This document shows positions 6,043 to 60,133 of a stretch of 64,000 bases of DNA, in pieces; positions within the stretch are counted from its first letter, which is position 1, and every line of letters begins with the position of its first letter. The stretch covers positions 6,919 to 70,918 of IMG/VR virus record IMGVR_UViG_3300002026_000146. One strand, written 5' to 3'. A program made the position numbers and the translations under genes. The stretch is from a virus. Its lineage: Duplodnaviria > Caudoviricetes. The notes beneath the pieces are model-generated. The model was not told the DNA's origin. It did not search any database and saw nothing but the letters and a program-made list of their open reading frames with translations.

Positions 6043-6060
6043 TCTATTTTAGACGTTAGA
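6043..6060 (-). promoter_or_regulatory. 18-bp motif copy
   Basis: TCTAACGTCTAAAATAGA, 4 nt before ATG 6038. Confidence 0.65.
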
Positions 6061-6063
6061 TGG

Positions 6064-7917
6064 TTAGGCCGAACCAGCAATTGTTGAGGCAATCGATATC
6101 ACTTGATTCATCGCCGCCTGCATTGCCCGCATCTCGATGTCGGCGGCTTTAGCAAGTGCTTCGGACTGAAGACCGCCGATGTTTTTCATATCCTCCATGT
6201 CCAACTGTGCCAGCGTCGTAGCCTTACGCACTTCGGCGTCAAACTCAGCAATACGCAAATCTGCCCTCTCTTTACTGATTGAGGCAAATGCTTTTAAGGC
6301 ATCAATCTTGGCGCTGGCTATCGTGGTAGCTGCTTGGTTCTTGGCTGCTACGCCTCCCGCCTGCATCTGATACACCTCAGCCACCCCTTTGGCAGCGGCT
6401 ATCTGTCCTTGAAGCGTAGCTGCGTGGACACCCTGCTTCGAAGAGATGACGTTCGCTTGCACGGAGGCCATCTGAGCGACGGCTTCTTGAGCCTGGATTT
6501 TAGCTTTGTACACCTCAATCAAGGACGTGTTTCCTTTGATCTGAGCTTCGTACACTTGGTTCTGCAGCCCGTGCGCCTTAACCTGCTCTGAGTATGCCTC
6601 GACTCTGGTCTTAAACACCTGGACTTTGAGAGCCTCTTGCTCGACTACGGACTTAGCGGCTGCGACGTCCGCCTGATAAACATCCACCAGAGACTTCACG
6701 CCGACGAGCTGTGCGGAGTACAGGTCGACCTTGCGCTTCTGTATGTCGGCTTCCGTTTTCGTTACCTCTAGCTTGAGTTTCTGGGTTTCGAGCCGCGCCA
6801 GCTCACCACGCACATGTGCCTCGTATGCCTGAGTGTTTGTCTGGTACTCTTCGAGTTTGGCCTTGAACCGGGCAACTCTCACGTTGTATGCAGAGATGGC
6901 TAGCTCTACTGTACTCTTTGCGACATCGTATGCCCGGCTCACTATCGTGAGGTGTGTAGAGAGCGACAGCTTCTCCCACTCCGTGAGTTGTTCGATTGTC
7001 CAACGACGGTTGGCGACAAACAGATCAGCCCTCTTGAGGTAGATGTCGCGGGAAGCCGAGCTGCTGGCTCCTAACGCAGCGGCTTGAGCCGCAGCCAGCT
7101 GAGCCATCATTGCCCCAGGAGGGAGCATGAATCCGCGAGCAGCTGATGCTCGTCCCGCCTCAGCAAAAGCGGCGACCATGTTCTTGTTCTCCCGGTCGAC
7201 TTCACGCGCCCATAGAGCTTTTTCGTCCTCTATGTCTATGCCGTAAGCGTTCATACTACCGTCACGCTTGAAGTCTTTAGTGAGGGCTTCGATCAAGGAC
7301 TCTCGTAGTGGGGAGATGTATTCGGTCTCTTCGAACTCGAAAGAGATAGGCGGTATGGTCAGATCGTCGGCGTCCCTCGCGAACTCTACGAAAGCCGGTA
7401 GCTCTACGTCCAATATCGTTGGAACCACTATGTTTTCGAATTTCGGAATCTCAGGAAGTGTGATGTTCACACGTTTGGCAATTATGGCCGGGGCAATCAC
7501 GGGCACGTCTTGCGGGGCAAGCCCTCTGAACGCCAGCGGCGGCTGGGGCGGCTGAATCTGCGGCGCGCCAGGGATGTCGAGCTTGATGGTCACATCCCCT
7601 GGGTCGTATGGGGATGTATCGATGGGAGGTAGGTTAGGTCGTTCTGGTACTGCTGTGAGTTCTGGGACAGCGTACTGATCGAGATCGTTCAACATTTCCG
7701 ACAACGCGCCGTCCTCTTCCGAGATGCGTTGGGCGACAGTTTCCCCCAGGTCGAACTCGATGGGTCGAGCGCCACGTGCCTGGAACTGATGCGTCAGCAT
7801 GGCCAGCTGGCTGATGAAGTTGGTGAGCTGGGCCTTGTAGCTCTTCGCATCCAACATCGCGATCCTCTGCAGCTCGGACGCGCTGTTAGGGTCGGGACCT
7901 ATTCGAATACCTGTCAT
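6064..7917 (-). CDS. Coiled-coil putative virion protein, 617 aa
   Basis: Long ORF with a helical, Ala/Gln/Lys-rich C-terminal half; overlaps its upstream neighbour by 4 nt within the structural operon. Confidence 0.7.
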   Translation of the reverse strand: MTGIRIGPDPNSASELQRIAMLDAKSYKAQLTNFISQLAMLTHQFQARGARPIEFDLGETVAQRISEEDGALSEMLNDLDQYAVPELTAVPERPNLPPIDTSPYDPGDVTIKLDIPGAPQIQPPQPPLAFRGLAPQDVPVIAPAIIAKRVNITLPEIPKFENIVVPTILDVELPAFVEFARDADDLTIPPISFEFEETEYISPLRESLIEALTKDFKRDGSMNAYGIDIEDEKALWAREVDRENKNMVAAFAEAGRASAARGFMLPPGAMMAQLAAAQAAALGASSSASRDIYLKRADLFVANRRWTIEQLTEWEKLSLSTHLTIVSRAYDVAKSTVELAISAYNVRVARFKAKLEEYQTNTQAYEAHVRGELARLETQKLKLEVTKTEADIQKRKVDLYSAQLVGVKSLVDVYQADVAAAKSVVEQEALKVQVFKTRVEAYSEQVKAHGLQNQVYEAQIKGNTSLIEVYKAKIQAQEAVAQMASVQANVISSKQGVHAATLQGQIAAAKGVAEVYQMQAGGVAAKNQAATTIASAKIDALKAFASISKERADLRIAEFDAEVRKATTLAQLDMEDMKNIGGLQSEALAKAADIEMRAMQAAMNQVISIASTIAGSA

Positions 7918-9341
7918 GGGAGTGCTCCTGAGATACGTCGGGTGCTGACCTCAAAAGTCACCCCGAACTGGGCGAAGTCGAAATCGGCCCCGTCCACATT
8001 GTTGAAATCGAACTGCCACGATCTGCCTGAGAGGCCCCGCGCCGTCACCACCCTGCGCGGCACAAGCTGAGGGATACCTCCTTGTGCGAGCGTGACAGTG
8101 GACGGCGGGAATTTGGCACCTTCGTCTACGGTGGAGGTCACCGTGATGTCCCCACTCATGCGGGCCACGAGATAGGCACCTGACACCCGTTTTTGGAACG
8201 GGCTTTCGATGTCCCAAAGCCCTGTGCGGATTTTGGCATTGATGGGTGCGCCCTCGTCGGTATCCCCGACGTCGATCTGCACTACCCCCGTTGAGCCGGT
8301 AGCGTAGTATTTTCCACCCAGCTCGAAGAACCCGTTATATGGGAACTGCTCGTAGTTGGATACCGCCTTCGTGATCGGATTGACGACCATGACATGCCAG
8401 CTGCCAGTGGAAGCGTCGAACTGGGCAGTGAGGTGTGCATCGACACGCGTCATGTCCGCGTCGATGGTTCCTATCGCACCGAACCCGGCATCCAGGGCAG
8501 CGGCCAGCGGCGTCAGGAGCGCCTCGATGCTGCCGCCCGTACCCCTGATGGCATCGAGCGCTGCCGTGCTCAGGGTCAAGGAAGCATTGATGCTCCCGTT
8601 CGATCCAGTGAGGGAGGACAGGAATGCGCTGATCTTCGGCAGTTCAGCGCTGATATCTCCGCCAGCGCCGAGGAGTGTTTCGAAATCCGAGGTCGGCGTC
8701 GGTAATTCCGCCGAAATTTCTCCTTGCGTTCCGTTCAGCGCCGTGAGTTCGGATGTAAGGGGGTTAAGTTTCGCCCGGATGGAAAGTATGTCCTGCCCAG
8801 CGACCACGTCAATCGTCAGCAGCGGCAGATCAGCATTGATGCGCCCATACAAGATGCCAGCGACATCGATGTTCGACCCGATGAGGGTCAACCCGCCTTG
8901 AACTACCGCCCCGTCTGCTGCGATGTTCCCCTCAATCGGTCCAGGGAACCGCCCAGCGATGTGGTTAAAGACCGTGGGCGGGGACAACGCGGAGGTGATC
9001 AGTGTCAACCCTGCGCTGATGTGAGGGCGCAGGAAAGTTGCGGTGGCTGCCCCCGAACCTATGCCCCCACCTGTAGCCGTCTCACTTTGGAAGATCGCTA
9101 CGGCTACGGTAGCAGTTCCCGCGCCTATAACCCCGCCACTCGTCGTGAATCTCCTGGCTACGGCAGCTAGCGCATGTCCAGAACCCTGAGCACCGCCATT
9201 AGCGGTGACGAACATGGTGCCCCCAAGCCCCACTGCGGCATCACCTGACCCGAGCGCGCCGCCCGTTGCTGTAAACGGGTACGTCGAGGCAACCATCCTC
9301 GACGGGATCGTAATGTTGCCTGTGATGTAGGTGGTTGCCAT
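7914..9341 (-). CDS. Putative tail/virion structural protein, 475 aa
   Basis: Gly/Ala/Thr-rich repeats followed by a beta-rich C-terminal domain; operon context. Confidence 0.65.
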   Translation of the reverse strand: MATTYITGNITIPSRMVASTYPFTATGGALGSGDAAVGLGGTMFVTANGGAQGSGHALAAVARRFTTSGGVIGAGTATVAVAIFQSETATGGGIGSGAATATFLRPHISAGLTLITSALSPPTVFNHIAGRFPGPIEGNIAADGAVVQGGLTLIGSNIDVAGILYGRINADLPLLTIDVVAGQDILSIRAKLNPLTSELTALNGTQGEISAELPTPTSDFETLLGAGGDISAELPKISAFLSSLTGSNGSINASLTLSTAALDAIRGTGGSIEALLTPLAAALDAGFGAIGTIDADMTRVDAHLTAQFDASTGSWHVMVVNPITKAVSNYEQFPYNGFFELGGKYYATGSTGVVQIDVGDTDEGAPINAKIRTGLWDIESPFQKRVSGAYLVARMSGDITVTSTVDEGAKFPPSTVTLAQGGIPQLVPRRVVTARGLSGRSWQFDFNNVDGADFDFAQFGVTFEVSTRRISGALP

Positions 9342-9342
9342 G

Positions 9343-9741
9343 TTATGTTACTGGCTGAGTTACGCTGAGGACGTCCACGGACACAGTTTGTCCTATGGAT
9401 GTGGACGCGGCATCGACGAGGAGGTCTTTCCCACTGGTCCCACAAGTACAGTCCATTGAGCCATCGGTCGGCCCGCCCCAACGCACGTACCCGCAGACGC
9501 CAGTAGCAGCGGCTGGCCCTGACTGTCCACCTAGCGCTACCACCCCATTTACAGGGTAGGCCATGCCGGTCGGTGTCTGGATACTGAACAACAGCGTGCC
9601 ACTCGCGGCAGTGTCAGCTGTCGCTGGTTGCGTGCCGGAGCGTATGGTGAACACGCTATCTCCCGCATTACATAGCAACTCGGCGAACCTCATAGCGAGG
9701 GCGTCACGGACGGAGGTGGATACTCGGAAGGACATGATCAA
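9343..9741 (-). CDS. Small virion protein, paralog family A
   Basis: SFRVSTSVRDALA...TIRSGTQPATADTAASGTLL motif shared with four other ORFs in the window. Confidence 0.7.
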   Translation of the reverse strand: MIMSFRVSTSVRDALAMRFAELLCNAGDSVFTIRSGTQPATADTAASGTLLFSIQTPTGMAYPVNGVVALGGQSGPAAATGVCGYVRWGGPTDGSMDCTCGTSGKDLLVDAASTSIGQTVSVDVLSVTQPVT

Positions 9742-10130: not shown

Positions 10131-10136
10131 ACCGTA

Positions 10137-10555: not shown

Positions 10556-10573
10556 TCTAAGTTAGACGTTAGG
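10556..10573 (-). promoter_or_regulatory. 18-bp motif copy
   Basis: CCTAACGTCTAACTTAGA, 11 nt before ATG 10544. Confidence 0.65.
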
Positions 10574-12227: not shown

Positions 12228-12245
12228 TCTAAGTTAGATGTTCGA
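12228..12245 (-). promoter_or_regulatory. 18-bp motif copy
   Basis: TCGAACATCTAACTTAGA, 5 nt before ATG 12222. Confidence 0.65.
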
Positions 12246-22130: not shown

Positions 22131-22148
22131 TCTTTCTTAGACGTTAGA
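22131..22148 (-). promoter_or_regulatory. 18-bp motif copy
   Basis: TCTAACGTCTAAGAAAGA, 5 nt before ATG 22125. Confidence 0.65.
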
Positions 22149-23298: not shown

Positions 23299-23429
23299 TT
23301 GATGGCTCCTTTCGTCGAGTTGAAGACACTGATCACTTGGCATTGCTGCCCCGCGTCGTGTGTCGTCACGACTGACGAAATTGGAGGTGTTGTCGTAACC
23401 TACCTAAACCGATAGCCGAAATATATCAC

Positions 23430-23450
23430 ACGTCTAAGTTAGACGTAAGA
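23430..23450 (-). promoter_or_regulatory. 18-bp motif copy within a perfect 17-bp palindrome upstream of the capsid gene
   Basis: ACGTCTAAGTTAGACGT at 23430-23446. Confidence 0.65.
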
Positions 23451-26496: not shown

Positions 26497-27456
26497 CTAG
26501 AGAATGTCGCCGCGCATACGTGCGAGGGCTTCGGGGTTGCTGTCAGAAAACTTCCTGAACTCCGCCTGACTCATGTTCATGATCGCCGCTGCCTCACTGG
26601 CGGCAGCGCCGTACTTGTCATGATCCTGGCCGGAGCGGTTGAGGCTCGGAGGTGACTTCGTGACAGCTTTAGCTGTCTTGTCCACAGCCGCTGCCTTGCG
26701 CTCCGAGGCCACGTCCTTTTCTGTGACCCTGGGGGTTGTGTTCGTAGCGATCTCCTGCTTCGTGGTGCGTGGGGCGACGAGCGCTTTGACAGCCTTCTGC
26801 AGAGCGACCGTAGGCGTAAAGCCCTTCATCTGATAAGCGTCCTTCAGCTCGGCGACCTCGGACATGGTCTCCTCGTTGTAGTCGTCGGAGTCTGGATTCA
26901 GTTCTGGGTAGGCGTTCTCGATGCGCTCCAGAGTCGTCGCGTAGCGGGTGTTCTCCACGGCGCGTATCTCAGCGGCGTGAATCTTCATGTCGCTCTTGGA
27001 TTCATTCATGTCGCGCTCGGCGCGGCGAATCTTGGACATCAGCTCACCCGCCTTGTCCAACTCCCCTTCAACCAACAGGGCGCGGTACTCCGCGTCCATC
27101 TTGGCGATGGAGTCTTCGGCGGCGGTGATCTGACTGTTGACGTCAGCCACCTGCTTGCCGTTCTGGTACTGAGCCAGCTGGCGCTCCAAGTCGGCGCGCT
27201 TCTCGCGCTCCTTCTCCAGAATCTCTTTGTGTCGGGCAGCCGGGATACGGGTGTCCTTGGACTTCTCCTTATCTTCGGACTCCGTCTTCTCCGCGTCTAA
27301 CTTAGATGTTAGATCAGCGGCGACTTTTTCGGCGTCTGGTTTCTCGGGGTCCGGGACCTTCTCTTCTTCGAGGACGTCGCCGCGCTCGAAGGGAGTTGGG
27401 CCGGAACCAGAGTCACCGGGTTCGGGTGCGAGCAGTAGGTAGTGCTTGAGGTTCAT
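26497..27456 (-). CDS. Capsid scaffolding protein
   Basis: Acidic coiled coil, IPAARHKE motif, position between portal and capsid. Confidence 0.7.
   Translation of the reverse strand: MNLKHYLLLAPEPGDSGSGPTPFERGDVLEEEKVPDPEKPDAEKVAADLTSKLDAEKTESEDKEKSKDTRIPAARHKEILEKEREKRADLERQLAQYQNGKQVADVNSQITAAEDSIAKMDAEYRALLVEGELDKAGELMSKIRRAERDMNESKSDMKIHAAEIRAVENTRYATTLERIENAYPELNPDSDDYNEETMSEVAELKDAYQMKGFTPTVALQKAVKALVAPRTTKQEIATNTTPRVTEKDVASERKAAAVDKTAKAVTKSPPSLNRSGQDHDKYGAAASEAAAIMNMSQAEFRKFSDSNPEALARMRGDIL
27296..27313 (-). promoter_or_regulatory. 18-bp motif copy inside the scaffold CDS
   Basis: TCTAACATCTAAGTTAGA, a perfect consensus match. Confidence 0.55.
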
Positions 27457-27708: not shown

Positions 27709-28031
27709 ACCGCCCCTTTGTGCATGCGCTCTTTGAGCAAGTACCCCTCAAGCGCCCAAATCTTCTCGCGGGCGTTGGTGTAGGCGATCTTCTGGCCGAG
27801 TGCGCGGTCGAAGTTTTCTTTGCTGGCGCAGGCACTCTCGCCGGTCACGGTGAAGCCGTTCTTCAGCTTCAGGCAGCAGATGGTCACGACGTCAAAAATA
27901 ATGACGTAGTCGACTGCGACGATGGTGGCGTCGATGTCGGCTGGAGTCAGGCGTGGGGCGGTGAGGCCCTTCTCCTGAATCTCTGCTTCGATGCCCGCTT
28001 CACAAGTTCGCGGGGAAGTAATGTTGTTCAT
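27705..28031 (-). CDS. tad1: N4 gp49/Sf6 gp66 family protein, Tad1-like signal sponge
   Basis: LKNGFTVTGESACASKENFD...G..IA...A.EKIWALEGY. Confidence 0.75.
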   Translation of the reverse strand: MNNITSPRTCEAGIEAEIQEKGLTAPRLTPADIDATIVAVDYVIIFDVVTICCLKLKNGFTVTGESACASKENFDRALGQKIAYTNAREKIWALEGYLLKERMHKGAV

Positions 28032-28042
28032 GGGTAGTGCTT

Positions 28043-28060
28043 TCTAAGTTAGACCTACGA
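28043..28060 (-). promoter_or_regulatory. 18-bp motif copy upstream of the tad1-like gene
   Basis: TCGTAGGTCTAACTTAGA, 11 nt before ATG 28031. Confidence 0.55.
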
Positions 28061-31201: not shown

Positions 31202-32739
31202 GCTGACATGAAACTGCCCTTGGCAGAGTTGCGGGTTATGCGGTCTCGCCAGCTGGGGAGGACTTTTTCTGCCTTGCGGCGTGGGGGTTGCGCGCCGATG
31301 GCCATCTGGGTGGCCCAGCTCAGGGAGTCGACGCAGTCATCGTGTGCTCCGGCGGGGAACCTCAGCATCTCCAGGCGACATGTGTCGTACCACTCGGCGC
31401 TCTGGTCGGAGTTGAAGCTCACCCGGCCCTGCTGCATCCGGCCCTGGAGCGGGCGGGCACGCGCCAACTTGTCCGTGATCGGTTTAAGGACTTGCGTAGC
31501 GGGGTAGAAGTTCAGTTCTCTCATGCGCTTCTTCAGTAGAGATTCGATGGCACGGTAAATCTGGCCGTCCTCGAAGCCGAGGCGCTGGCCGGAAGTGTAC
31601 CACTTCTTACTTAGACGTAAGATAGCATCGACCACCGCAAACGCGTCCCCTGACTTGAACCTGATCTGCTCGGCCACGTGCAGCGTGTCGTCCTCGTCTT
31701 GGAGTAAGACCGTGCCGACCGTGTAGTCGTTCTGCTTCTTTTCGCTGATGGCGAAGTCCCAGGCGATGAACACGTTACTGCGCTCGACGGCAGGGATGCC
31801 TCCCCGGCGGAAGTTCTCTTTGAGGAAGTAGCTGCCGTCATCGGGCACCGGGTTCTGCTGGTACAGGGCCGACCAGAACCGTGGGCTGATCGTGGTCTTG
31901 ATCTGGTTGAGCATCTTCAGGTCGTAGCGCTCCGGGTGCAGAGCCTCGCCCTTATTGCGCAGGAGTTTGCCGGATTCGGGAGGTTCGTAGACGATCAGGT
32001 CTGTGTCGTAGTCGAGGTATTCGTCTGATTCGGCGATGGCGGGGTACTTGACGACGGTGAACTGATCGGCGTCAGGGTTCGACATAGCGTTTTGGAGTCG
32101 ACCGGCCAAGTCATCGTCATGCCACCAAGTCTGCACCACCAATACGCCCCCGCCCGGTGCGAGCCGGGTGTACGCGGTCGATCCATACCAGTCCCAAAGC
32201 TTCTCTCGGATATCAGCACTGTCGGCCTCCTCAGCGTTCTTTAACGGGTCGTCAATGATCAGCAGGTGGGCACCCTTCCCCGTGATGCCCCCGCCCACTC
32301 CAGCGGCCACGTAGGCCCCTTTACTGGACTGCAGGCTCCATTCCTCAGCTGACTTATCGTTCGGGTCGAGCCGGGCATCAAAAACAGGGTGGTAATTGGG
32401 GTCTTCCAGCACGGATTTGACCTTTTTGGAGAAGGTCATGGCCAGAGAGACGTTGTACGAGCAGGCGATGATCTCGTGATCCGGGTTTCGGCCCAGGTGC
32501 CAGGACGGGAAAGCACGGGAGCAGAGTTCAGATTTACCTGATCGCGGGGGCATCAGCAGCATCAGCCTTGGGGAGAGCTTGGCTGCCACGTCGTCGGAGA
32601 ATTTTTCTAAGCGCCGACAGATGTCCTCGTGGACCCACCCGGCCAGATACTGCTCATTGAGCCGCTGCACGAACGGCAAGAGGGAGCGCCGGGACAGAAT
32701 CCTTGAGGCCAGCTCCTTATGGGCAGCGGCATGACTCAT
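31198..32739 (-). CDS. terL: Terminase large subunit
   Basis: MPPRSGKSE Walker A, LLIIDDP Walker B, AWDFA and HDDCVD nuclease motifs. Confidence 0.95.
   Translation of the reverse strand: MSHAAAHKELASRILSRRSLLPFVQRLNEQYLAGWVHEDICRRLEKFSDDVAAKLSPRLMLLMPPRSGKSELCSRAFPSWHLGRNPDHEIIACSYNVSLAMTFSKKVKSVLEDPNYHPVFDARLDPNDKSAEEWSLQSSKGAYVAAGVGGGITGKGAHLLIIDDPLKNAEEADSADIREKLWDWYGSTAYTRLAPGGGVLVVQTWWHDDDLAGRLQNAMSNPDADQFTVVKYPAIAESDEYLDYDTDLIVYEPPESGKLLRNKGEALHPERYDLKMLNQIKTTISPRFWSALYQQNPVPDDGSYFLKENFRRGGIPAVERSNVFIAWDFAISEKKQNDYTVGTVLLQDEDDTLHVAEQIRFKSGDAFAVVDAILRLSKKWYTSGQRLGFEDGQIYRAIESLLKKRMRELNFYPATQVLKPITDKLARARPLQGRMQQGRVSFNSDQSAEWYDTCRLEMLRFPAGAHDDCVDSLSWATQMAIGAQPPRRKAEKVLPSWRDRITRNSAKGSFMSA
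31605..31622 (-). promoter_or_regulatory. 18-bp motif copy inside terL
   Basis: TCTTACGTCTAAGTAAGA, 16/18 match. Confidence 0.45.
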
Positions 32740-33026: not shown

Positions 33027-33579
33027 GTAGTGGGAGTTCGTTTTTAGAGATGACCTGAAGCAGCTCGGCGTCGGTCATGGAGTTCAACTTGTCGAGAATG
33101 ATGTTGCCGGTCACATCTACCTTCACCCGATGCTCGACCGGCGCGTAGTAGCCGCAGATTTTTCCGATCTCCCGCCATCCCGAGATCATGGAGGCAGGCT
33201 CGGACATCAGCTTGGCCATCTCGATGGACTCCAGCATGCCATCCATGACTTTCTGGCGAGTCATCTGCCCGGCCTCTTGCCATTTGGCTTCGTACTGGGC
33301 TTTGAGGGCCAGGACGTGCGGCATGCGGGCGAGCCGGTAGGCTAGTTTGTGGTCTGAGTACCCGGCACGGATACATGCAGAGGTGACCGACTCACCTTCG
33401 GCCCAGCACTTGACGAACTCCTTCTGCTTTTCAGTGAGGGGTTTGTTTGGGTCGATGAGCGCAGCGGATGCGGCTGAGGAGTTGGACTTGCCCTTGGCGC
33501 GGGCGACTTCTACGCCGCGCTCACCGCCGTGGCGTTTGATTTGAGAGTAAGGGGACTTGGTCAGGGTTTTAGTGGCCAT
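32986..33579 (-). CDS. terS: Terminase small subunit
   Basis: LTEKQKEFV...SACIRAGYS HTH pattern; upstream of terL. Confidence 0.8.
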   Translation of the reverse strand: MATKTLTKSPYSQIKRHGGERGVEVARAKGKSNSSAASAALIDPNKPLTEKQKEFVKCWAEGESVTSACIRAGYSDHKLAYRLARMPHVLALKAQYEAKWQEAGQMTRQKVMDGMLESIEMAKLMSEPASMISGWREIGKICGYYAPVEHRVKVDVTGNIILDKLNSMTDAELLQVISKNELPLLEDITDVPDELDS

Positions 33580-33589
33580 GGTTGGGGAT

Positions 33590-33607
33590 TCTAACTTAGA
33601 CGTTAGA
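33590..33607 (-). promoter_or_regulatory. 18-bp motif copy upstream of terS
   Basis: TCTAACGTCTAAGTTAGA, 10 nt before the ATG. Confidence 0.7.
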
Positions 33608-33811
33608 TATTTGCTCCCAGAAATTTTTCATAAAAATTTTCAACTTACGGTCTCGTGGGTCCCTCTATATGGCCGCGTCCAAAGACCGCCCCACTTCGGA
33701 TTCGTGATCGACCACAGCTGAAAAGGAGTCTCTTCGTGCTAGGCCATCTGGACTTCGTGGTTGCGCTGCTGCGTCCTCGTGGTTCGTTGCTCCTCGCTCT
33801 TCGTGTGTTTG

Positions 33812-34637: not shown

Positions 34638-34690
34638 GCCCTTTGGGCATTGTGGCAAGTTCGCCATGCTATAGAAATAGGAGCACTCGT

Positions 34691-35122
34691 ATGGGCGTTG
34701 CATTTTTACTCGTCGTACTCGCATTCGCACTCATTAGTGTTGGTGCAGAGATCGTGTTCATCGGATTGTTTTTGAGTCCTCGCATGCGCGGCAAGATGCT
34801 CGGAAATAAGGTCGCGGTGCGATGTTTACACGCATTTATTTTGGCCGCAAACCTCTACGTGCATTGGGGCAGTGGAGCTGCCGGAACCAATGCATCGTTG
34901 CTTGCTTTCATCATGTCGCCCGTCGCAATGTGGCTCTCAAAACACATCTTCGGATACTTCACACATGGCGAGACTTTCAAGCATGGGTGGATCAAATACA
35001 GCGCGAAGGAACTGCTCGACGATGAGCAGTATGAGTTGTACATCATCACCCTCGCCGACAAGGCGCAACACGAACTCACAAAGTTCGAGAAACAAGAACT
35101 GGAGCTATATGCACAAGCATGA
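34691..35122 (+). CDS. Membrane protein with about 3 TM helices
   Basis: AGGAG RBS; start MGVAFLLV. Confidence 0.65.
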   Translation: MGVAFLLVVLAFALISVGAEIVFIGLFLSPRMRGKMLGNKVAVRCLHAFILAANLYVHWGSGAAGTNASLLAFIMSPVAMWLSKHIFGYFTHGETFKHGWIKYSAKELLDDEQYELYIITLADKAQHELTKFEKQELELYAQA

Positions 35123-37947: not shown

Positions 37948-38076
37948 CCCCCCCCCCCCCGTGTAAGTGTAATAAATATAGTATAAAAGATAGAGTTTCA
38001 GAGGAGAAATGGCAAATTTTTGTGCTTACACACTTACAGAGGTGAACACCTCTAAAATGTCCGTCTAATCATCTAA
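37948..38076. other. Candidate replication origin: C13 tract, AT-rich core, inverted repeats
   Basis: C13 at 37948-37960; TGTAAGTGT (37962-37970) and ACACTTACA (38030-38038); upstream of the primase. Confidence 0.4.
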
Positions 38077-38086
38077 AGGCATTACC

Positions 38087-40570: not shown

Positions 40571-40588
40571 TCTAACATCTCACTAAGA
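40571..40588 (+). promoter_or_regulatory. 18-bp motif copy
   Basis: TCTAACATCTCACTAAGA, 10 nt before ATG 40599. Confidence 0.6.
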
Positions 40589-42629: not shown

Positions 42630-42814
42630 ACAACGATTCTCGTTTCAAGTTACCACCCAAAAAGTTTAAGGTCGTGGTACGTCGTTCTTCCTACATCACC
42701 TACGAGATAGAAGACTCCCGGGCCGAGGAGGCCCACTACACAGCACTCGATCAAGCTGTCGAAGACTACGGCGGCAATGCTGACTATGAAATCACCCACA
42801 TGGAGGTAGCATGA
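42626..42814 (+). CDS. Hypothetical protein
   Basis: GGAGG RBS. Confidence 0.55.
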   Translation: MNNDSRFKLPPKKFKVVVRRSSYITYEIEDSRAEEAHYTALDQAVEDYGGNADYEITHMEVA

Positions 42815-43308
42815 TTCAGTCATCGTTCGTTGGGGGCATAAACCCCTTCATCAAACATCGGCCAGAACCCAAGTGCGTAATCGTCACCGACGCACCTCAG
42901 TCGATCAAACACGTGACCAACCGCAAGGTTGAAACACTGGCCTTCATCAAGAACAATCCCGGCGCGACGGTTGCACAGCTCAAGCCGCTGCTGCAGATGG
43001 AGGACAGAGGCATAGGCCGAATCCTTCGTAGCCTGCGCCTGCGTGGCCGGATCACCCGTGTTGCAGAAGATGGTGTGTGGCAGCACTACATCGTTAACGA
43101 TGCGCTGCTGTCGCTGATTGATCAACACAAACAGATACTGATCAACGCCTTGGAGGAACAACCAGGGATGATGCTCACGAGGCTGGCCGAGCGGTGTGGC
43201 CGCACACCCAACGGCACGCAGTCGCTGTTGGTGAGCCTGATCAAGTCAGGTCTGGTGAAACGCAGCTGGTCAGCAGATCAGCGTTGGTTCTACGAGATGG
43301 TGCCATGA
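42811..43308 (+). CDS. Tandem winged-helix DNA-binding protein
   Basis: Two repeats: NNPGATVAQL...L.LRGRI and EQPGMMLTRL...LIKSGLV. Confidence 0.6.
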   Translation: MIQSSFVGGINPFIKHRPEPKCVIVTDAPQSIKHVTNRKVETLAFIKNNPGATVAQLKPLLQMEDRGIGRILRSLRLRGRITRVAEDGVWQHYIVNDALLSLIDQHKQILINALEEQPGMMLTRLAERCGRTPNGTQSLLVSLIKSGLVKRSWSADQRWFYEMVP

Positions 43309-43937: not shown

Positions 43938-44146
43938 CCCACACCATCAACCAGACCCAAGCCGTAGCAGTGGCCAATGAGGTCTACCTGCAAGAGATGG
44001 GCACCTGCCCAACAGGCGTCAAAGTCCAGTTGCTCAACCCCGGAGGAGTGCTCGTCTACGGCTCCTATGACGGTAAGAGCACCGACTGGCAAGCGTGGGC
44101 ACCACTGCCACGCAAGAAACCTTTTCATCAACCGTCTAACAACTAA
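43934..44146 (+). CDS. Phage hypothetical protein
   Basis: CPTGVKVQLLNPGGV...WQAWAPLP. Confidence 0.6.
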   Translation: MTHTINQTQAVAVANEVYLQEMGTCPTGVKVQLLNPGGVLVYGSYDGKSTDWQAWAPLPRKKPFHQPSNN

Positions 44147-44152
44147 CTTAGA
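44135..44152 (+). promoter_or_regulatory. 18-bp motif copy upstream of the MoxR cluster
   Basis: TCTAACAACTAACTTAGA, 17/18 match. Confidence 0.6.
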
Positions 44153-45971: not shown

Positions 45972-46792
45972 TCCAAAACCAAGCCATGCTCGCCAGCCTG
46001 TCCATCAGCAGCTGGGGCGGGCGCAAACAAGACAAGAAGGTCACGGCTGAAGTCGAGACCACCCACGGCGCACACGACGCTGGCAAATTCAACAAAGCCC
46101 TCGTTAACAAGGGCCTGCTCGAACCCATCAACAAGATCATCGGACGTGCCCGTGAAGCCCACCACCGCTTCACCCTGCCATGGACCGACGACGGTCGGCG
46201 CATCCTGCCTGGCAAGAACTTCATGCCCTGTACCACCGAGGTACGCGCATTGAAGTCGGAGTTTGACATTGCTGTGCGTACCATGGTGGGCCAGTACCCC
46301 ATCGAGGTGCAGGCTGCACGCAATCGCCTCGGGTCAATGTACGACCCCGGCGACTACCCCGATCCTGCCGACATCGCCAACAAGTACAGCTTCGAGCTGG
46401 AGTTCGAGCCGGTACCCGACGGCAACGACTTTCGTGTGGACGTGGGCAAGGAAGCCATGGCTGAGCTGCGCGACTCTGTGACCAACAAGGTTGTGCAGCG
46501 TCAAGCCAACGCCATGAAGTCCTGCTACTCCCGTCTTCGTGACGTGGTATCTAAGGTCGAAGAAAGACTGAGCGACCCGAAGGCGATTTTCAAAGACAGC
46601 CTGATCGAGAACGTGAAGGATGAATGTTCAATCATGGACGGTCTGAACATCACCAACGACAAGGACCTGACTGCTCTGGTCACAGAGATTCAGGATCAGC
46701 TGATCGTCCCACCAAGCACCCTGCGCAACAACCCAGTCACTCGTGGAAGGGTTGCCGCAGCGGCATCACAACTTCTACAGAGGATTCCGTAA
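45968..46792 (+). CDS. DUF3150-like helical protein
   Basis: LASLSISSWGGRKQDK...TLPWTDDGRRILP. Confidence 0.55.
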   Translation: MIQNQAMLASLSISSWGGRKQDKKVTAEVETTHGAHDAGKFNKALVNKGLLEPINKIIGRAREAHHRFTLPWTDDGRRILPGKNFMPCTTEVRALKSEFDIAVRTMVGQYPIEVQAARNRLGSMYDPGDYPDPADIANKYSFELEFEPVPDGNDFRVDVGKEAMAELRDSVTNKVVQRQANAMKSCYSRLRDVVSKVEERLSDPKAIFKDSLIENVKDECSIMDGLNITNDKDLTALVTEIQDQLIVPPSTLRNNPVTRGRVAAAASQLLQRIP

Positions 46793-49766: not shown

Positions 49767-50434
49767 CCGACATTGAAGAAGACGAAGAAGTCGAAACTGT
49801 CTACACCTTTGACGAGCTTTCCGAGCGCGCCAAAGACAAAGCCCGCGACAAGTACCGTGAGAGCGACCACCTAGACTACGAATGGTGGGACAACGTGTAC
49901 GAAGACGCGGTGCGTATGGGCAAGCTGATCGGAATCGACATCGACATCCGACGGAGCATGACCACGAAGGGCCGACAGGTTCAGGAGACTGCCATCAACT
50001 TCTCTGGCTTCTGGTGCCAAGGCGATGGAGCATGCTTCGAGGGCAGCTATAGCTTCTTGCCCGACGCCTACAAGAACATTGAGACTGAGTGCAACGACGA
50101 AAAACTCCTGCGCATCGCCAATGAACTGACAGTGCTACAGCTGACCCGCAGGCTCATGGGGTATTTGCCGTTCAGCGCGTCGATCACGACGTCGGGAAGG
50201 TACTCGCACTCGGGGACGATGGACGTCAACCTCCATGCAGACGATGACGATGGGATGAGCGACGGCAACACCTTCGGCGACGCCTTCGAAAGAGACGTCC
50301 AACAACTCATGCGTGATTTCGCTGACTGGATTTACAAAAACCTCGAAGCTGAGCACGACTACCTCACCTCGGACGAGTGTATCGACCAGTACTTAACCGA
50401 AGAAAAATTCAATGAAGACGGCGAAATCGTCTAA
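49763..50434 (+). CDS. Acidic mobile-element protein (family often labelled antitoxin of a TA stability system; function unproven)
   Basis: VYTFDELSERAKDKAR...FSGFWCQGDGACF...IYKNLEAEHDYLTSDE. Confidence 0.6.
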   Translation: MTDIEEDEEVETVYTFDELSERAKDKARDKYRESDHLDYEWWDNVYEDAVRMGKLIGIDIDIRRSMTTKGRQVQETAINFSGFWCQGDGACFEGSYSFLPDAYKNIETECNDEKLLRIANELTVLQLTRRLMGYLPFSASITTSGRYSHSGTMDVNLHADDDDGMSDGNTFGDAFERDVQQLMRDFADWIYKNLEAEHDYLTSDECIDQYLTEEKFNEDGEIV

Positions 50435-50447
50435 CATCGTAGTTCGA
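50430..50447 (+). promoter_or_regulatory. 18-bp motif copy upstream of the nuclease
   Basis: TCTAACATCGTAGTTCGA, 15/18 match. Confidence 0.5.
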
Positions 50448-50467
50448 ACTAAATTAGAAAGCACTAC

Positions 50468-55529: not shown

Positions 55530-55710
55530 CCTCCTGCGAGGTAACGACAACCCGCCCATCATCGACTTTGAAATAAGGCGCGATGGTGGGCGGTGGGTGT
55601 TCTATCACCCAGCGAAGAAAAACGCAGTTGCCGTCTTTACCGGCGGCACCAGCGTGGAAGCCGTTCAGGCTTTGAAGATGTATCTGATTACGCGCCGACT
55701 GACGGCGTAG
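55498..55710 (+). CDS. Hypothetical protein
   Basis: 70 aa. Confidence 0.5.
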   Translation: MPFTLTNTGVDLLRGNDNPPIIDFEIRRDGGRWVFYHPAKKNAVAVFTGGTSVEAVQALKMYLITRRLTA

Positions 55711-55946
55711 GACTCCTCCTGCTGGGCTGGCAACGTACTGCCGTAAACACAGGATTCTGCACCCGAGTCAGCTAGGGTGCGGCGTGAGAACTATCACGTG
55801 ATGACGGGCGAGCACAGCCAAATTGTGTAGTTCGAGTGCCGACTGACTGGCGTAAGCAGTCACCCCTGAGTGTGTTGAAAATAAACACACTTCGTATCTG
55901 ATATCTAACACAGATCGTAGTTAGAATTCACACAACAAAGGACCTT

Positions 55947-56396: not shown

Positions 56397-56398
56397 CG

Positions 56399-56416
56399 TC
56401 TAACATCTAAGAAAGA
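56399..56416 (+). promoter_or_regulatory. 18-bp motif copy upstream of the SSB-like gene
   Basis: TCTAACATCTAAGAAAGA, 5 nt before ATG 56422. Confidence 0.65.
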
Positions 56417-56421
56417 TCAAC

Positions 56422-57225
56422 ATGGCTACTAAGAAAACAGCTACCTCTACCGCCGTCGCTACCGTGACCAAGGCGAACACCAACTTGGTGTCTATCCGTG
56501 ACCAGTTGAAGGCCCAAGTCGCTGCGCAAGCAGGCAAGACCGAGGGCAGCGCCAAGAAGGTCAAGATCGATGCAAGCACATTCACGTTGCCCAACGGCAG
56601 CATGTTTCAGGCCCCCATGAAGGCCGTCGTGTTGGACTTCAACACCCACCACAGCCTGTACGAGAAGGCGTTCAAGAAGGGCGAGATCAGCCCCATCATC
56701 TGCGCTGCATTGGGTGACAACCCCAAGGCGATGGTGCCCTATGCATCCATCGCTGACCCACAGTGCGGTGACTGCAACGGCTGCTGGGCCAATGAGTTCA
56801 AGTCGGCCAACGGTGGCAACGGCAACGGGAAGGCTTGCAAGCAAGTCCGTACCTTGGCGATCATGACTGAGGACGCCACAGGGTTCATCGACCCCAAAGG
56901 TCCGATCTTCCTGATGCAGACGAACGTGACAGCGAACAAGGTGTTCGATGCGTTCGTGAAGTCGGTCGGTTCGGTGTTCCAGCTGCCCCCAGTTGGTGTG
57001 ACGGTCTCCTTGGGGATCGACAACTCTAACCCGACATGGAACTTCGTCACCTATGACAACCCACAACCGATGGACGATGCAACCATCGGCGCGTTCATGG
57101 CTCGTCAGGCCGAAGCGCGTGGGATGTTGGAGGAGGAAGTCACCGTGTCGGTACCGACACCCGAACCTGTCAAGCCAGCTGCACCTGTGCGTGGCAAGGT
57201 TTCGGTGGCAGCCGCTCGCCGATAA
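56422..57225 (+). CDS. Putative ssDNA-binding/annealing protein
   Basis: C-x2-C-x2-C..N...GKACK motif; position in the replication module. Confidence 0.55.
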   Translation: MATKKTATSTAVATVTKANTNLVSIRDQLKAQVAAQAGKTEGSAKKVKIDASTFTLPNGSMFQAPMKAVVLDFNTHHSLYEKAFKKGEISPIICAALGDNPKAMVPYASIADPQCGDCNGCWANEFKSANGGNGNGKACKQVRTLAIMTEDATGFIDPKGPIFLMQTNVTANKVFDAFVKSVGSVFQLPPVGVTVSLGIDNSNPTWNFVTYDNPQPMDDATIGAFMARQAEARGMLEEEVTVSVPTPEPVKPAAPVRGKVSVAAARR

Positions 57226-57327
57226 GTCAATCCCCCGTTTGAGGGATATCCCGTACAGACATGATGCAAGTCAAGTAAAGCACCAAGTCTGTACGTCACC
57301 CCACAAACTTCACCTATAACAAATCTA

Positions 57328-57555
57328 ATGACTAACTCAGTTCGTAAATGGTATCTAACAGAAGCGCTGGTGTCATACCGGCGGCTCCTGTCCGTTCTTC
57401 CTGAGTTGAAGTTGGAAGAAGTAATGGCTGCTCTCAATCTTGAGAGCGCCACACAAAGGCGTCGTTCCTTAATCGACAAACTCATCTCTCGGGCAGTTCA
57501 GCTCGAAGGGATAACACTAACCAAAGCACTCTCGGAGAAATATCACCATGGCTAA
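57328..57555 (+). CDS. Hypothetical protein
   Basis: 75 aa; coupled to the next gene. Confidence 0.6.
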   Translation: MTNSVRKWYLTEALVSYRRLLSVLPELKLEEVMAALNLESATQRRRSLIDKLISRAVQLEGITLTKALSEKYHHG

Positions 57556-58000
57556 AGCCCCAAAGTCCCTCACCGCCGCTGAGAAAAAAGCAGCACTCGC
57601 CAACATCAAGCTGGCTACCAAAAACCACTCGGAGAACGTCAAGTCGATCTCCGCTGCGCTGAAAGAAGTCGAAAAGGCTCGCGCTCAGGTCGCCAAGGAG
57701 AACGCAGCCAAAGCGAAAGTGCTGGCTGCACAAGTGGCTGCTGCCAAGAAAGCCGCTGACGCGATGGTCGCCGCTGCATTCAAGACAGCGGACGCTGAGA
57801 CCAAGGCATTCAACGCGGCGATGGCCAAGGCCGACAAGGAGCTGGCTGCTGCAACTGCCAAGGCTGAGAAGGCCAAGGCAGCAGCTGAGATCGGCGCTGC
57901 CAAGCTGGCCGCACAGGCTGCAGCACTGGAGGCGGCACCTGTCGCTCCTGCAGCTAAAGCAGCCAAGGTCACAGCTGCACCTGAAACCGCAGCGGCCTAA
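57548..58000 (+). CDS. Ala/Lys-rich, histone H1-like low-complexity protein
   Basis: Composition dominated by A and K; GGAG RBS. Confidence 0.65.
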   Translation: MAKAPKSLTAAEKKAALANIKLATKNHSENVKSISAALKEVEKARAQVAKENAAKAKVLAAQVAAAKKAADAMVAAAFKTADAETKAFNAAMAKADKELAAATAKAEKAKAAAEIGAAKLAAQAAALEAAPVAPAAKAAKVTAAPETAAA

Positions 58001-58006
58001 ACGAAA

Positions 58007-58040
58007 CCCACGCCCACGCCCTCGTCAGCGTGGGCGTGGG
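58007..58040 (+). terminator. 13-bp GC stem-loop
   Basis: CCCACGCCCACGC...GCGTGGGCGTGGG after the stop codon. Confidence 0.55.
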
Positions 58041-58066
58041 CATCTTAATAAAAACAGAAGGACGAA

Positions 58067-58615
58067 ATGAAACACATCATGCTGGATTTAGAAACCCTCG
58101 GCACTGCTGCTGATGCGGTCATCCTGAGTATTGGAGCCGTGCGCTTCGATCTCGACACTAATCAGATCGACGACGCCGGCTTCTACGCCAGCGTGTCCGT
58201 TGACTCGAATCTGGATGCCAAGCGGCGCATTCAGGAAAGCACCTTGATCTGGTGGCTCCAACAAGGAGCGGCGGCCCAAGGTGTGTTTCATGAGACGAAG
58301 CAGGCGCTACGCACTGCACTTGTTGATTTGTCCGACTGGATCAGGAACAAAGAGTGCACCGTATGGAGCAACGGGGCAGACTTCGATCTGCCTATGCTGG
58401 CGCATGCGTACATCTCGTTGGGCATCGAGGTACCTTGGCACTTCTGGAACAGCCGCTGCTTCAGAACGTACAAAAACCTGCCCGGTGCCAAGGCAATCAA
58501 GGTGCCGTTCGACGGGGTCAAGCACAACGCGCTGTTTGATGCTGTTCATCAAGCTAAGCACGTGCAGGCAATCCACGCTGCACTGTTTGGCAAAAAAGTT
58601 AAGGCACCCGTATGA
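58067..58615 (+). CDS. DEDD 3'-5' exo(ribo)nuclease
   Basis: MLDLETLG, WSNGADFD, HNALFDA. Confidence 0.85.
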   Translation: MKHIMLDLETLGTAADAVILSIGAVRFDLDTNQIDDAGFYASVSVDSNLDAKRRIQESTLIWWLQQGAAAQGVFHETKQALRTALVDLSDWIRNKECTVWSNGADFDLPMLAHAYISLGIEVPWHFWNSRCFRTYKNLPGAKAIKVPFDGVKHNALFDAVHQAKHVQAIHAALFGKKVKAPV

Positions 58616-58743
58616 GCGATAAAGACCTATTGATTGCCCTGACGTTGGCAGCACTTAGCAACGAACGCATAGTGCTTGATAACGTCGTAGGGGCAGCACG
58701 GCAGATTTTGTTTGAACTAAAAGAGGAACTTGAAACACTATGA
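58612..58743 (+). CDS. Hypothetical protein, 43 aa
   Basis: Manual translation; ATGA overlaps at both ends. Confidence 0.45.
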   Translation: MSDKDLLIALTLAALSNERIVLDNVVGAARQILFELKEELETL

Positions 58744-59111
58744 GCAACATCGATGCAACCCTGGAAGAACGCGGCCAACGCTACGGCGAGTTCACCGAAC
58801 ACGCTGAGATCACGCAGAACATTAAAGAAGCCATGAAGGGTGGCAACAACTGGGACAGCCTCTGCTACGACCAAGTTGAATGTCTGGAGATGATCGCCCA
58901 CAAGATCGGACGTATCCTCAACGGTGACCCGAACTATGTGGACAGCTGGACGGACATCATCGGCTACACCCGTCTGGTGGAGAAGCGCTTGATCGCTATG
59001 GCTGCCGAAGCCGACGTGCCCTGTACCGACCCACGCTGCCCTGAACATAACCCCGCCATCCGCGAGGCAATCGAAGTCTTGCGCAAAGCTGGCGTCATTG
59101 TCCACTCCTGA
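58740..59111 (+). CDS. DUF6378-like phage protein
   Basis: LEERGQRYGEF...MIAHKIGRILNGDPNYVDSWTDIIGY. Confidence 0.75.
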   Translation: MSNIDATLEERGQRYGEFTEHAEITQNIKEAMKGGNNWDSLCYDQVECLEMIAHKIGRILNGDPNYVDSWTDIIGYTRLVEKRLIAMAAEADVPCTDPRCPEHNPAIREAIEVLRKAGVIVHS

Positions 59112-59490
59112 AAACACATTCATCGCTTCAGTTCATCGGCACCTGCCGCATGAGCTGTACCGTATGAAAAACCACAACCAATACAACGGTGGTATTCCCG
59201 ATGTCTGGTATAGCGGCCCTGCGGGCGATGTGTGGATTGAGTATAAATTTGTCGCGCTTCCCAAGCGCGAAGCAACCACGGTCAAGATCGACCTCTCCGA
59301 ACTTCAGAAGAATTGGCTTATGACCAGACACTCAGAAGGTCGGAGGGTTGGAGTGATCGTCGGCTGCATAGAAGGTGGTGTGTGGATGCCCGGGCTAACT
59401 TGGCAAGTTCCTTACACCGTGACTTCATTCCGCAAATCGATTGCGCTACGAAACGCATTAGCTACTATCATTGCGGACATGACAACCTAG
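59098..59490 (+). CDS. VRR-NUC/Holliday-resolvase-like nuclease
   Basis: GGIPDV...WIEYK...LSELQKNW. Confidence 0.75.
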   Translation: MSTPENTFIASVHRHLPHELYRMKNHNQYNGGIPDVWYSGPAGDVWIEYKFVALPKREATTVKIDLSELQKNWLMTRHSEGRRVGVIVGCIEGGVWMPGLTWQVPYTVTSFRKSIALRNALATIIADMTT

Positions 59491-59683
59491 TCAATACCGG
59501 CTAGGAGGGGAGCTGAGTTTGATCGAACTTTATTAGAGGTATTGAACGGTCACGCCTTGGAGGGGTCTCGGCTCTCTGAACAAAATCGCTAGGAATCATC
59601 TTCGTCTCAACGCCGGACTAAACCGAGGGCGACCGCGAAAGGTTCCGAATTCTTCATTTAAGGATTTTCACGAGCACTACATC

Positions 59684-60070
59684 ATGAGAAACGACGAATC
59701 AGGTTTGTTCCCCGCCCTAGAAGCCGCACTGCGTGCGGCCGATGGGCCAATGGACGCCAATGATCTTTATGACCTCCCCGCAGTCAAAGAATATGCTGCA
59801 TCCATGAACAGAGTTTCCGACTACCTCGGCAACCTCTGGCGAAAAGGATACGTCACTCGATCTCCTGCCCCTAAAGGGCGAGATAGCAGGTGCCTCTGGT
59901 ACTACGAGTGGAAAGGGAACAAAGGCCCGAAGATTTACGATCATGCCTTGGAGTTCACCCCCAAGGTAATCGCTGACAGACCCAGCGTGTTGATCACTGA
60001 GGAGGGCAGCGTCATGACGCTGGAGTTCCCTAACCTCGTCATCGTTATCAAGCAAAAACCCAAGCAATAA
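59684..60070 (+). CDS. Putative winged-helix DNA-binding protein
   Basis: GPMDANDLY...VSDYLGNLWRKGYV. Confidence 0.55.
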   Translation: MRNDESGLFPALEAALRAADGPMDANDLYDLPAVKEYAASMNRVSDYLGNLWRKGYVTRSPAPKGRDSRCLWYYEWKGNKGPKIYDHALEFTPKVIADRPSVLITEEGSVMTLEFPNLVIVIKQKPKQ

Positions 60071-60071
60071 A

Positions 60072-60110
60072 CCGGAAGATGTTCGGCCCTTCGGGGCCAC
60101 CATCTTCCGG
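60072..60110 (+). terminator. Extended hairpin with a UUCG tetraloop
   Basis: CCGGAAGATG..GGCCC-TTCG-GGGCC..CATCTTCCGG. Confidence 0.55.
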
Positions 60111-60115
60111 CTCCA

Positions 60116-60133
60116 TCTAACATCTAAGCACGA
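60116..60133 (+). promoter_or_regulatory. 18-bp motif copy upstream of the ligase
   Basis: TCTAACATCTAAGCACGA, 7 nt before ATG 60141. Confidence 0.6.

Follow-up and report, generated by a model that had tools for sequence, protein, structure and literature searches.

An oriented 18-bp word across a KPP25-like podophage genome, a possible docking site for a phage-encoded winged-helix protein

The 18-bp word TCTAACRTCTAASTTAGA recurs in both arms of the phage contig IMGVR_UViG_3300002026_000146 from IMG/VR, and every copy in the window is oriented with local transcription. The window comprises 64,000 nt, bases 6919–70918 of this single 70,918-bp contig (57% G+C), and positions refer to it unless stated otherwise. 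We favor, with moderate confidence, the reading that the word forms an operator- or stoperator-like docking network for a phage regulator, the 128-residue protein encoded at 59684–60070. The word is enriched, polar, conserved, selected at the nucleotide level, restricted to phage sequence and rewritten between lineages, and it is syntenic with the gene for this protein, whose predicted fold is a winged helix; that the protein binds the word and that the effect is negative is what we infer.

Copies of the word in the phage genome

With up to three mismatches allowed, the window holds 15 matches, compared to 0.04 ± 0.2 expected from 100 dinucleotide shuffles. A first-pass annotation of the sequence had listed 14 copies; all of their coordinates and strands proved correct (Table 1), and the enrichment holds against this null. 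The 15th match, at 23426 (+), is the palindromic half of the 23433 (−) copy read on the opposite strand. A scan with a position weight matrix (PWM) revealed a further good copy outside the window, at genome position 5020 (−) within a giant open reading frame (ORF) of 3359 amino acids (aa), and weaker copies at 46550 (+) and 57324 (+). Over the 71 kb of the whole genome, the count is 15–17, where 0.04 are expected. The word has an A+T content of 72% and is built from two direct TCTAA half-sites, spaced 7 bp apart, with one inverted half-site after them.

The orientation of the copies switches at the divergent point of the two arms, at ~33.6–33.9 kb, as the annotation had claimed. Leftwards from 33.6 kb, the minus strand carries the virion genes: terS-like, terL, portal, scaffold-like, capsid, head-closure, large virion proteins and the giant ORF. 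The plus strand begins at 33.9 kb with small genes that have strong Shine–Dalgarno (SD) sequences, followed by genes for a primase, a MoxR-like ATPase, a PD-(D/E)XK nuclease, a helicase, DNA polymerase A, an exonuclease, a ligase and an integrase (61479–62498). No copy with a PWM score above 8 was found on the plus strand between 33.6 and 40.5 kb. Eleven copies end shortly before an ATG, at distances of 4, 11, 5, 5, 11, 10, 10, 21, 20, 5 and 7 nt, which agrees with the range of 4–21 nt given previously. The two copies described as intragenic do lie in the scaffold-like gene (27296) and in terL (31605), and the one described as far upstream of the capsid gene is that at 23433. Beyond the terS and capsid promoter zones, the copies occur within genes or in gaps of less than ~40 nt.

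No RNA polymerase or sigma factor was detected in Pfam and PHROG scans of ~60 proteins of the phage which, together with the integrase, points to a temperate lifestyle that relies on the host RNA polymerase. Among cultured phages, the Pseudomonas podophages KPP25 and phiR18 are the closest, at ~40% amino-acid identity. Hundreds of uncultured relatives are present in IMG/VR, and prophage relatives occur in Herminiimonas and Uliginosibacterium genomes and in metagenome-assembled genomes (MAGs). A search of the phage collection found no cultured member of the clade that carries the word; a proteobacterium is the probable host. Genes were called with a heuristic of our own, and promoters were predicted from consensus match alone.

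Table 1. Copies of the word, candidate regulator gene and adjoining hairpin (window coordinates)
Feature	Position	Strand	Context
Motif copy	6043..6060	−	4 nt before ATG of 914-aa virion gene; no SD
Motif copy	10556..10573	−	11 nt before ATG; the gene's own GGGAG SD in between
Motif copy	12228..12245	−	5 nt before ATG of head-closure (Hc3-like) gene; no SD
Motif copy	22131..22148	−	Between capsid stop and next gene; third half-site purine-rich, GAAAGA
Motif copy	23433..23450	−	Abuts capsid promoter; 90 nt upstream of capsid ATG
Perfect motif copy	27296..27313	−	Inside 319-aa scaffold-like gene, the only stop-free frame
Motif copy	28043..28060	−	After portal gene, 11 nt before ATG; no SD
Motif copy	31605..31622	−	Inside terL; rare codons TTA, CTA, AGT; no start codon near
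Motif copy plus AT	33588..33607	−	Head of late arm; last four bases plus AT form TAGAAT, 8 nt before terS ATG
Degenerate copy (TCTAA-TCA-TCTAA-AGG)	38063..38080	+	Before primase ATG; read from sequence
Motif copy	40571..40588	+	First good plus-arm copy, after primase, 10 nt before ATG; no SD
Motif copy	44135..44152	+	21 nt before an ATG that has its own GGAG
Motif copy (TCGTA/TTCGA variant)	50430..50447	+	20 nt before PD-(D/E)XK nuclease ATG; no SD
Copy with 4-nt insertion between first and second half-sites	55904..55925	+	Read from sequence
Motif copy, third part GAAAGA	56399..56416	+	5 nt before ATG
Candidate binder, 128 aa	59684..60070	+	N-terminal winged helix, C-terminal four-stranded beta domain; 190-bp non-coding stretch upstream
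Strong hairpin	60072..60110	+	−28 kcal/mol in 70-nt context; between candidate gene and copy 60116
Motif copy	60116..60133	+	Right after candidate regulator gene and hairpin; 7 nt before ligase ATG

Conservation, nucleotide-level selection and lineage variants

Conservation in related phages, which a functional reading of the motif presupposed, is borne out. The relatives' loci contain 171 distinct copies, compared to 2 in shuffled sequence, and 155 of the 166 testable copies (93%) are co-oriented with the downstream coding strand. Positions 1–2 (TC), 8–9 (TC), 11–12 (AA) and 16–18 (AGA) of the word are near-invariant, and its edges are sharp. No −35-like signal was found upstream of the copies. 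Copies are frequent only in the subclade whose primase is at least 65% identical.

The word is restricted to phage sequence. With at most two mismatches, it occurs on one contig of a 4.1-Mb MAG, the 65.7-kb phage contig C105, and on one contig of a 6.4-Mb MAG, C17, which is taken to hold a prophage. Two isolate genomes that hold motif-free prophage relatives contain no copy. Since the word is absent from the rest of the two MAGs and from both isolate genomes, we rejected a host regulon.

The copy inside terL is the most informative one with respect to selection. It encodes I-L-x-L-S-K-K-W and is always spelled ATC TTA xxT CTA AGT AAG in the motif clade, using the rarest leucine codons despite a G+C content of 77% at third codon positions of the gene. 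At the same place, more distant relatives have TTG, CTG, CTC or CTT and other residues (A-S, A-T, C-S), and the S-K residues are fixed only in the motif clade. This pattern indicates that selection acts on the word as nucleotides. No start codon lies near the copy, and the function of the word would therefore be independent of an adjacent translation start. In three relatives (L001, L003 and L013), the terL frame spans 821 aa versus 513 aa here, and the extra stretch, which may represent an intein or the insertion of a homing endonuclease, carries a perfect copy of the word with an ATG 5 nt after it.

In a sister lineage, represented by the 66-kb contig G009, the TCTAA word is missing and TCGTT-NN-TCGTT-N-AACGA is found in its place. 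This contig contains eight exact TCGTT-NN-TCGTT pairs, compared to ~0.13 expected, and about a dozen good copies, most of them co-oriented with genes. Some precede SD-less starts, and some have GAAGGA or GAAAGA as their third part. Four further loci of the same lineage type (L267–L270) carry TCGTT-YA-TCTTT-N-AAAGA. That the architecture is kept while the half-sites differ points to a reader that is encoded by the phage and co-evolves with the word. Upstream of the capsid gene, G009 has two copies (L206, 30118–30160 and 30638–30680) that are embedded in the stems of T-run terminator hairpins.

Candidate reader, start codons and promoters

The search for such a reader compared six complete genomes, and the best candidate is the 59684–60070 product. 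It is 61–64% identical in the three relatives with the TCTAA word and 43% identical in the TCGTT lineage, and it is absent from the genome without the word. Its family comprises more than 120 clusters at 59–86% identity, with no Pfam family and no cultured-phage homolog, and the family profile matches no solved chain at E <0.4. An AlphaFold (AF2) model based on a 49-sequence alignment (predicted local distance difference test score, pLDDT, 81.6) features a winged helix at residues 8–76 and a four-stranded beta domain in the C-terminal half; a 28-sequence model was too poor (pLDDT 58) for its fold matches to be meaningful. Every top Foldseek match of the 49-sequence model is a winged-helix regulator domain, mostly DNA-binding (AbfR2, Fur/Zur/PerR, ArsR, MarR and PadR), with a probability of ~1.0 and a root-mean-square deviation of 2–3.5 Å over ~70 residues.

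The genomic position of the gene ties it to the word. The order of gene, hairpin or terminator, the lineage's own word and next gene is shared by this phage, G005, G009, L267–L270 and most of L209–L248, and relatives have a GC hairpin with a T-run terminator at the place of the hairpin. Within the 110 nt that follow the candidate gene, the highest motif score is above 10 in 65% of 31 loci, compared to 2.4% of random windows, and the genes that follow the regulator differ between relatives. The putative recognition helix reads NRVSDYLG(G/N)(L/M)WRKG in TCTAA lineages and NRVSDYL(S/G)(V/I)(L/M)(F/Y)R(K/R)G in TCGTT/TCTTT lineages, a variation with the half-sites that is suggestive of a link to the word.

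The first-pass annotation had named three possible binders. One of them, 59684, gains support as a candidate from its modeled winged-helix fold, its conservation, its synteny with a copy and its variation with the motif. We rejected the other two. The 42811–43308 (+) gene, whose 165-aa product has two MarR-like winged helices in tandem, occurs in none of the other phages examined, and motif-bearing relatives have no homolog of it, and the 57548–58000 product is Ala/Lys-rich and of low complexity. The 159-aa ORF at 34643–35122 (+), one of the few conserved early-region genes, was also considered and discarded: it belongs to a membrane protein family of ~103 aa. As the relatives' protein has ~103 aa, the true start of this ORF is probably downstream of its TTG.

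The switch of polarity between the two arms, and the flanking of variable gene modules by copies, as with the differing genes after the regulator, could also fit a polar DNA signal with no part in gene expression, for example a boundary at which modules are shuffled by recombination, a nicking site, or a signal for replication or packaging. We regard this as very improbable: the copies are strongly concentrated at promoters and immediately ahead of start codons, a predicted DNA-binding protein varies along with the word, and no nicking, primase or terminase logic explains an 18-bp word of three half-sites.

Genes led by the word are poor in SD sequences. By our gene call, eight of nine lack one, while 55% of the other genes have one. 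The mean duplex energy with the anti-SD is −1.4 kcal/mol for motif-led genes, −4.8 for other genes and −2.7 for random sites; for complementarity to the 16S rRNA 3′ end 5–10 nt from the start, motif-led genes pair more weakly than random sequence. The top over-represented hexamers upstream of starts in this genome are pieces of the word, not SD sequences. In KPP25, upstream regions are enriched in SD hexamers, and no comparable word was found there. For 88 of the 171 copies in relatives, an ORF begins no more than 25 nt away, with distances peaking at 6 and 9–10 nt, and at sites 3–7 nt from the ATG the third half-site is turned into SD-like GGAAGA or GAAAGA. The junction 3′ of the capsid gene reads AAGGAG, an SD, in relatives without the word. 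The gene that follows the regulator has no SD in several relatives, where its ATG is contained in the word. A spacer, AAGCACTAC(C/AT), is found directly before the ATG of three SD-less genes (28020–28042, 50448–50467 and 59670–59683) and in relatives too.

It is conceivable that the word acts in mRNA, as the binding site of a phage translational operator protein, as an AU-rich ribosome landing pad that makes initiation SD-independent, or as a processing site by the start codon. The start-proximal peaks, the mutual exclusion of word and SD, the canonical SD at the same junction in relatives, the embedded ATG of the SD-less gene after the regulator and the A+T-rich composition of the word in a G+C-rich genome all speak for such a role. 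It leaves the terL, capsid and terS copies unexplained: the conserved terL copy is not near any start codon, that of the capsid gene is ~90 nt away from the ATG and has a −10-like hexamer downstream of it, and the terS copy would be untranscribed if the terS mRNA is leaderless. Furthermore, the inversion of a half-site has consequences only if the word is read on duplex DNA or folds into a hairpin, and the pairing of positions 1–6 with 13–18 covaries weakly and is often broken. Neither anti-SD complementarity nor an Rfam family was found, and the best candidate protein has a predicted DNA-binding fold. We therefore judge an mRNA element unlikely as the primary role of the word. A hairpin of RNA or single-stranded DNA formed by the same pairing was rejected for its weak 4–15 covariation, for GAAAGA and GGAAGA variants that break the stem without compensation, and for the absence of an Rfam match.

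Two promoter regions show how the word can be combined with −10 elements. In nearly every lineage (~55 related loci), a sigma-70-type −10 hexamer (TAGAAT, TATAAT, TACAAT or TAAAAT) lies 6–8 nt before the terS ATG, which has no SD. The hexamer is present in lineages with or without the word, and a −35 is absent in all of them. In the motif clade, its TAGAAT form consists of motif positions 15–18 plus AT; in the window, the −10 and the start occupy 33577–33593. Because the hexamer is only 6–8 nt from the ATG, the terS mRNA is probably leaderless, or nearly so, throughout the family. In the region that precedes the capsid gene, a −10-like hexamer follows the end of the word after 2 or 7 nt; here it is the TATATT at 23420–23425 beside the capsid copy, with a conserved ~70-nt leader after it. 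This leader of ~70–90 nt (23344–23419, −) is conserved in sequence in relatives down to ~70% capsid identity and may be a structured 5′ untranslated region.

These regions raise the question of whether the word is itself part of a phage-specific middle or late promoter, in which an activator or an unrecognized sigma-like factor reads the TCTAA repeats in place of a −35. The 3′ TTAGA(AT) would be the −10, and transcripts would start a few bases downstream, giving leaderless or very short leaders that explain the absent SD. The terS word end, which forms TAGAAT 7–8 nt before the ATG, fits this proposal, as do the sites 8–12 nt from an ATG in relatives, about half of which read GTTAGA+AT. The lack of a −35 at terS in all lineages suggests that this promoter probably depends on an activator, the SD-rich early region has no word while replication and virion genes are preceded by it, the relatives' copy after 59684 directly follows a terminator, and Lpa-bound late promoters of P1 provide a precedent (PMC10695390). 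Nevertheless, T occupies the −7 position in only 1 of the 14 window copies, and a −10-like hexamer at leaderless distance is found in only one to three genes per genome: terS plus one or two genes with TAnnnT 5–9 nt before the ATG. A general leaderless-promoter model was rejected because so few genes fit it. Sites 3–7 nt from the ATG, or with the ATG inside the word, would start transcripts downstream of the start codon. The position of the word relative to recognizable −10 hexamers varies by 5–11 bp or more, and at terS of the G009 lineage the word lies downstream of the hexamer in the opposite orientation. Finally, no RNA polymerase or sigma factor was found among the ~60 scanned proteins, and no known activator family. 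A promoter function is the most serious competing account, and we consider it possible but doubtful.

Given the variable position relative to −10 hexamers and the geometry at starts, no single fixed promoter or ribosome-site geometry fits all copies. A protein docking site that is placed wherever non-coding space allows does fit this variable geometry. Occlusion is compatible with such variable spacing, whereas an activator box at a fixed place is not. Together with the promoters that have no word, the copies that have no promoter features, the intragenic conservation, the strict polarity, the predicted temperate lifestyle and the stand-alone regulator gene, this leads us to favor a repressive docking network. 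In the mechanism we propose, the word would be a double-stranded-DNA docking site of a sequence-specific phage regulator, for which the winged-helix protein is the best candidate. Copies on core promoters, at the terS −10 and in the spacer/−35 zone of the capsid promoter, would act as classical operators. At most copies, which lie in sense orientation in short gaps before middle and late genes and occasionally inside genes, the bound protein would most likely stop the host RNA polymerase. Through this roadblock, replication and virion genes would stay off in the lysogen or until they are due to be expressed. The word, rich in A+T, would occupy the usual place of the SD, which explains why the genes behind it are SD-less or have a third half-site that was made SD-like (GGAAGA/GAAAGA). 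As a second function, the AU-rich word may aid SD-independent initiation.

Several observations weigh against this reading. The first ~4–6 kb of the plus arm (33.9–38 kb) has no copy, and a prophage repressor should hold the early lytic promoter; either another regulator is needed or the immunity repressor is a different protein. No integrase is seen in G010, a motif-rich relative. The helix–word link rests on two or three lineages and could reflect shared ancestry. No sigma-70 promoter was recognized upstream of 59684, and the order of terminator, motif and gene resembles a terminator–promoter arrangement. Positions 19–20 are enriched for A/T and then T, giving TAGAWT, and the exclusion of SD sequences could also mean a translational role.

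The phage-wide regulon proposed by the first-pass annotation stands insofar as replication and structural genes are covered by a conserved, polar, phage-restricted word under nucleotide-level selection. Among the mechanisms it listed, a DNA operator or promoter-associated site is favored, and an mRNA element or a generic polarized DNA signal is less so.

Other elements were noted near these sites. An AT-only quasi-palindrome at 33612–33640 (GAAAATTTTTATGAAAAATTT) lies 5–35 nt upstream of the terS motif; its form, AAAATTTTT-N3-5-AAAAATTT, is kept family-wide at variable distance, and an UP element, a site of DNA bending or an origin-like element are conceivable roles. Ahead of the first plus-strand gene, five to six copies of YTTCGTG are found in the divergent non-coding region (33650–33810). 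A palindrome, GCTATC-N5-GATAGC, occurs in the divergent control region between terS and primase of L127, L162, L179, L088, L093, L138, L125 and L159, and in L093 it is found just upstream of a TCTAA word. It is probably the operator of another regulator; as an analog of the word it was rejected, as it occurs only once or a few times and in the control region. Terminators upstream of copies are not a general rule in this genome, where one is seen at 60116 only. The giant ORF (L115:129–10208, −) corresponds to window 1–3290 plus the 6.8 kb before it. Only its C-terminal ~830 residues match a PHROG (phrog_30152, virion structural protein), and no Pfam family, Protein Data Bank sequence match or RNA polymerase signature was found in it. 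A promoter for an N4-like virion RNA polymerase, considered because of the N4-like genome size and the giant ORF, was consequently rejected, and no cognate polymerase for the T7-/N4-like single-subunit promoter class was found among the scanned proteins. Adjoining the integrase, ARAGORN predicts a tRNA-Val(CAC) at 62804–62879 (−), where Rfam finds no tRNA at gathering score; this may be a partial or attP-related tRNA copy.

Comparison with known systems

The layout of direct, direct and inverted short repeats is one that the Fur box can reportedly be read as (in work by Escolar in 1998 and by Baichoo and Helmann in 2002). Fur itself has ~130–150 residues, with an N-terminal winged helix and a C-terminal dimerization domain, and Fur, Zur and PerR are among the best fold matches of the candidate protein. 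Unlike in Fur boxes, the period of the word is 7 bp rather than 6, the protein is phage-encoded and has no sequence homology to Fur, and the sites are polar with transcription. The start-associated sequences of Cluster K mycobacteriophages, said to have been described by Pope et al. in 2011 with an SD core (GGAG) at a tight distance to the start codon, are likewise conserved, co-oriented words a few bases before the starts of a subset of genes. In contrast, the word described here excludes the SD, is also found inside genes and at promoters, and has a variable distance to the start.

The late promoters of phage P1 are 11 in number, each with a conserved 9-bp inverted repeat bound by Lpa (PMC10695390). 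They resemble the present sites in being about a dozen dispersed repeats by a −10, without a −35, in late-gene control. The −10 spacing is not fixed in our case (overlap, 2 nt, 7 nt or downstream), most copies have no −10, and copies also cover replication genes and lie inside genes.

The first-pass annotation recognized no described system in the motif, a statement that two precedents contradict. Coliphage T1 and Citrobacter phage Stevie contain 16–20 asymmetric 22-bp repeats without known function, mostly intergenic and oriented with transcription, which the authors likened to stoperators (PMC4319613). As here, these are oriented, mostly intergenic repeats in phages of Gram-negative bacteria; the word differs, the phages are lytic siphoviruses and no binder was proposed for them. 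The closest parallel is the operator/stoperator system of Cluster A mycobacteriophages (L5 gp71 and the TipsytheTRex repressor), which has the same genome-wide, orientation-locked, intergenic layout. In the L5/Cluster A system, a repressor binds more than 20 asymmetric 13-mers, located in promoters and in short spaces between genes and oriented with transcription; reversal of the orientation abolishes repression, and the structure of a Cluster A repressor has been solved (PMC9283540). Both cases involve a temperate phage without an RNA polymerase of its own and more than 12 copies of one asymmetric word, located in promoters and short intergenic gaps of both arms in an orientation locked to transcription.

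The differences are nevertheless substantial. The phage studied here is a KPP25-like podophage, its host is probably a proteobacterium, and its 18-bp word has three half-sites, compared to a 13-mer. The candidate protein is a 128-aa winged helix plus beta domain with fold matches of the Fur/MarR/ArsR type; L5 gp71 has a helix–turn–helix and a Stoperator domain and binds as a monomer, and the candidate profile, which matches no solved chain at the threshold given above, reveals no homology to it. In addition, the early region has no site and the word displaces the SD. The different fold class, the lack of a sequence match and the missing site at the early promoter indicate that the system is an analog of the Cluster A system and not a member of it.

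More tentatively, a large clade of uncultured temperate podophages that infect Proteobacteria may have arrived independently at a silencing network of the stoperator type. The network would depend on a new family of small Fur-like winged-helix proteins reading direct-direct-inverted 5-bp half-sites, with a specificity rewritten between lineages (TCTAA, TCGTT, TCTTT) to give immunity groups, and with the word doubling as an SD-free, AU-rich translation start region. If the docking network is real, genome-wide silencing of elongation or initiation by one repressor is not peculiar to actinobacteriophages and would recur in temperate phages, and the protein and word would offer an orthogonal repressor/operator pair for Gram-negative hosts. 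A 128-aa protein and an 18-bp word with natural specificity variants form a tractable pair for studying the evolution of immunity specificity. In the annotation of hundreds of related metagenomic contigs, SD-less starts, leaderless terS and the late promoter become predictable. The layout of genome-wide oriented sites is already known from mycobacteriophage stoperators; new are the word with its grammar of three half-sites, the way in which it is rewritten between lineages and displaces the SD, the candidate protein family, and a probably leaderless terS promoter that is shared family-wide.

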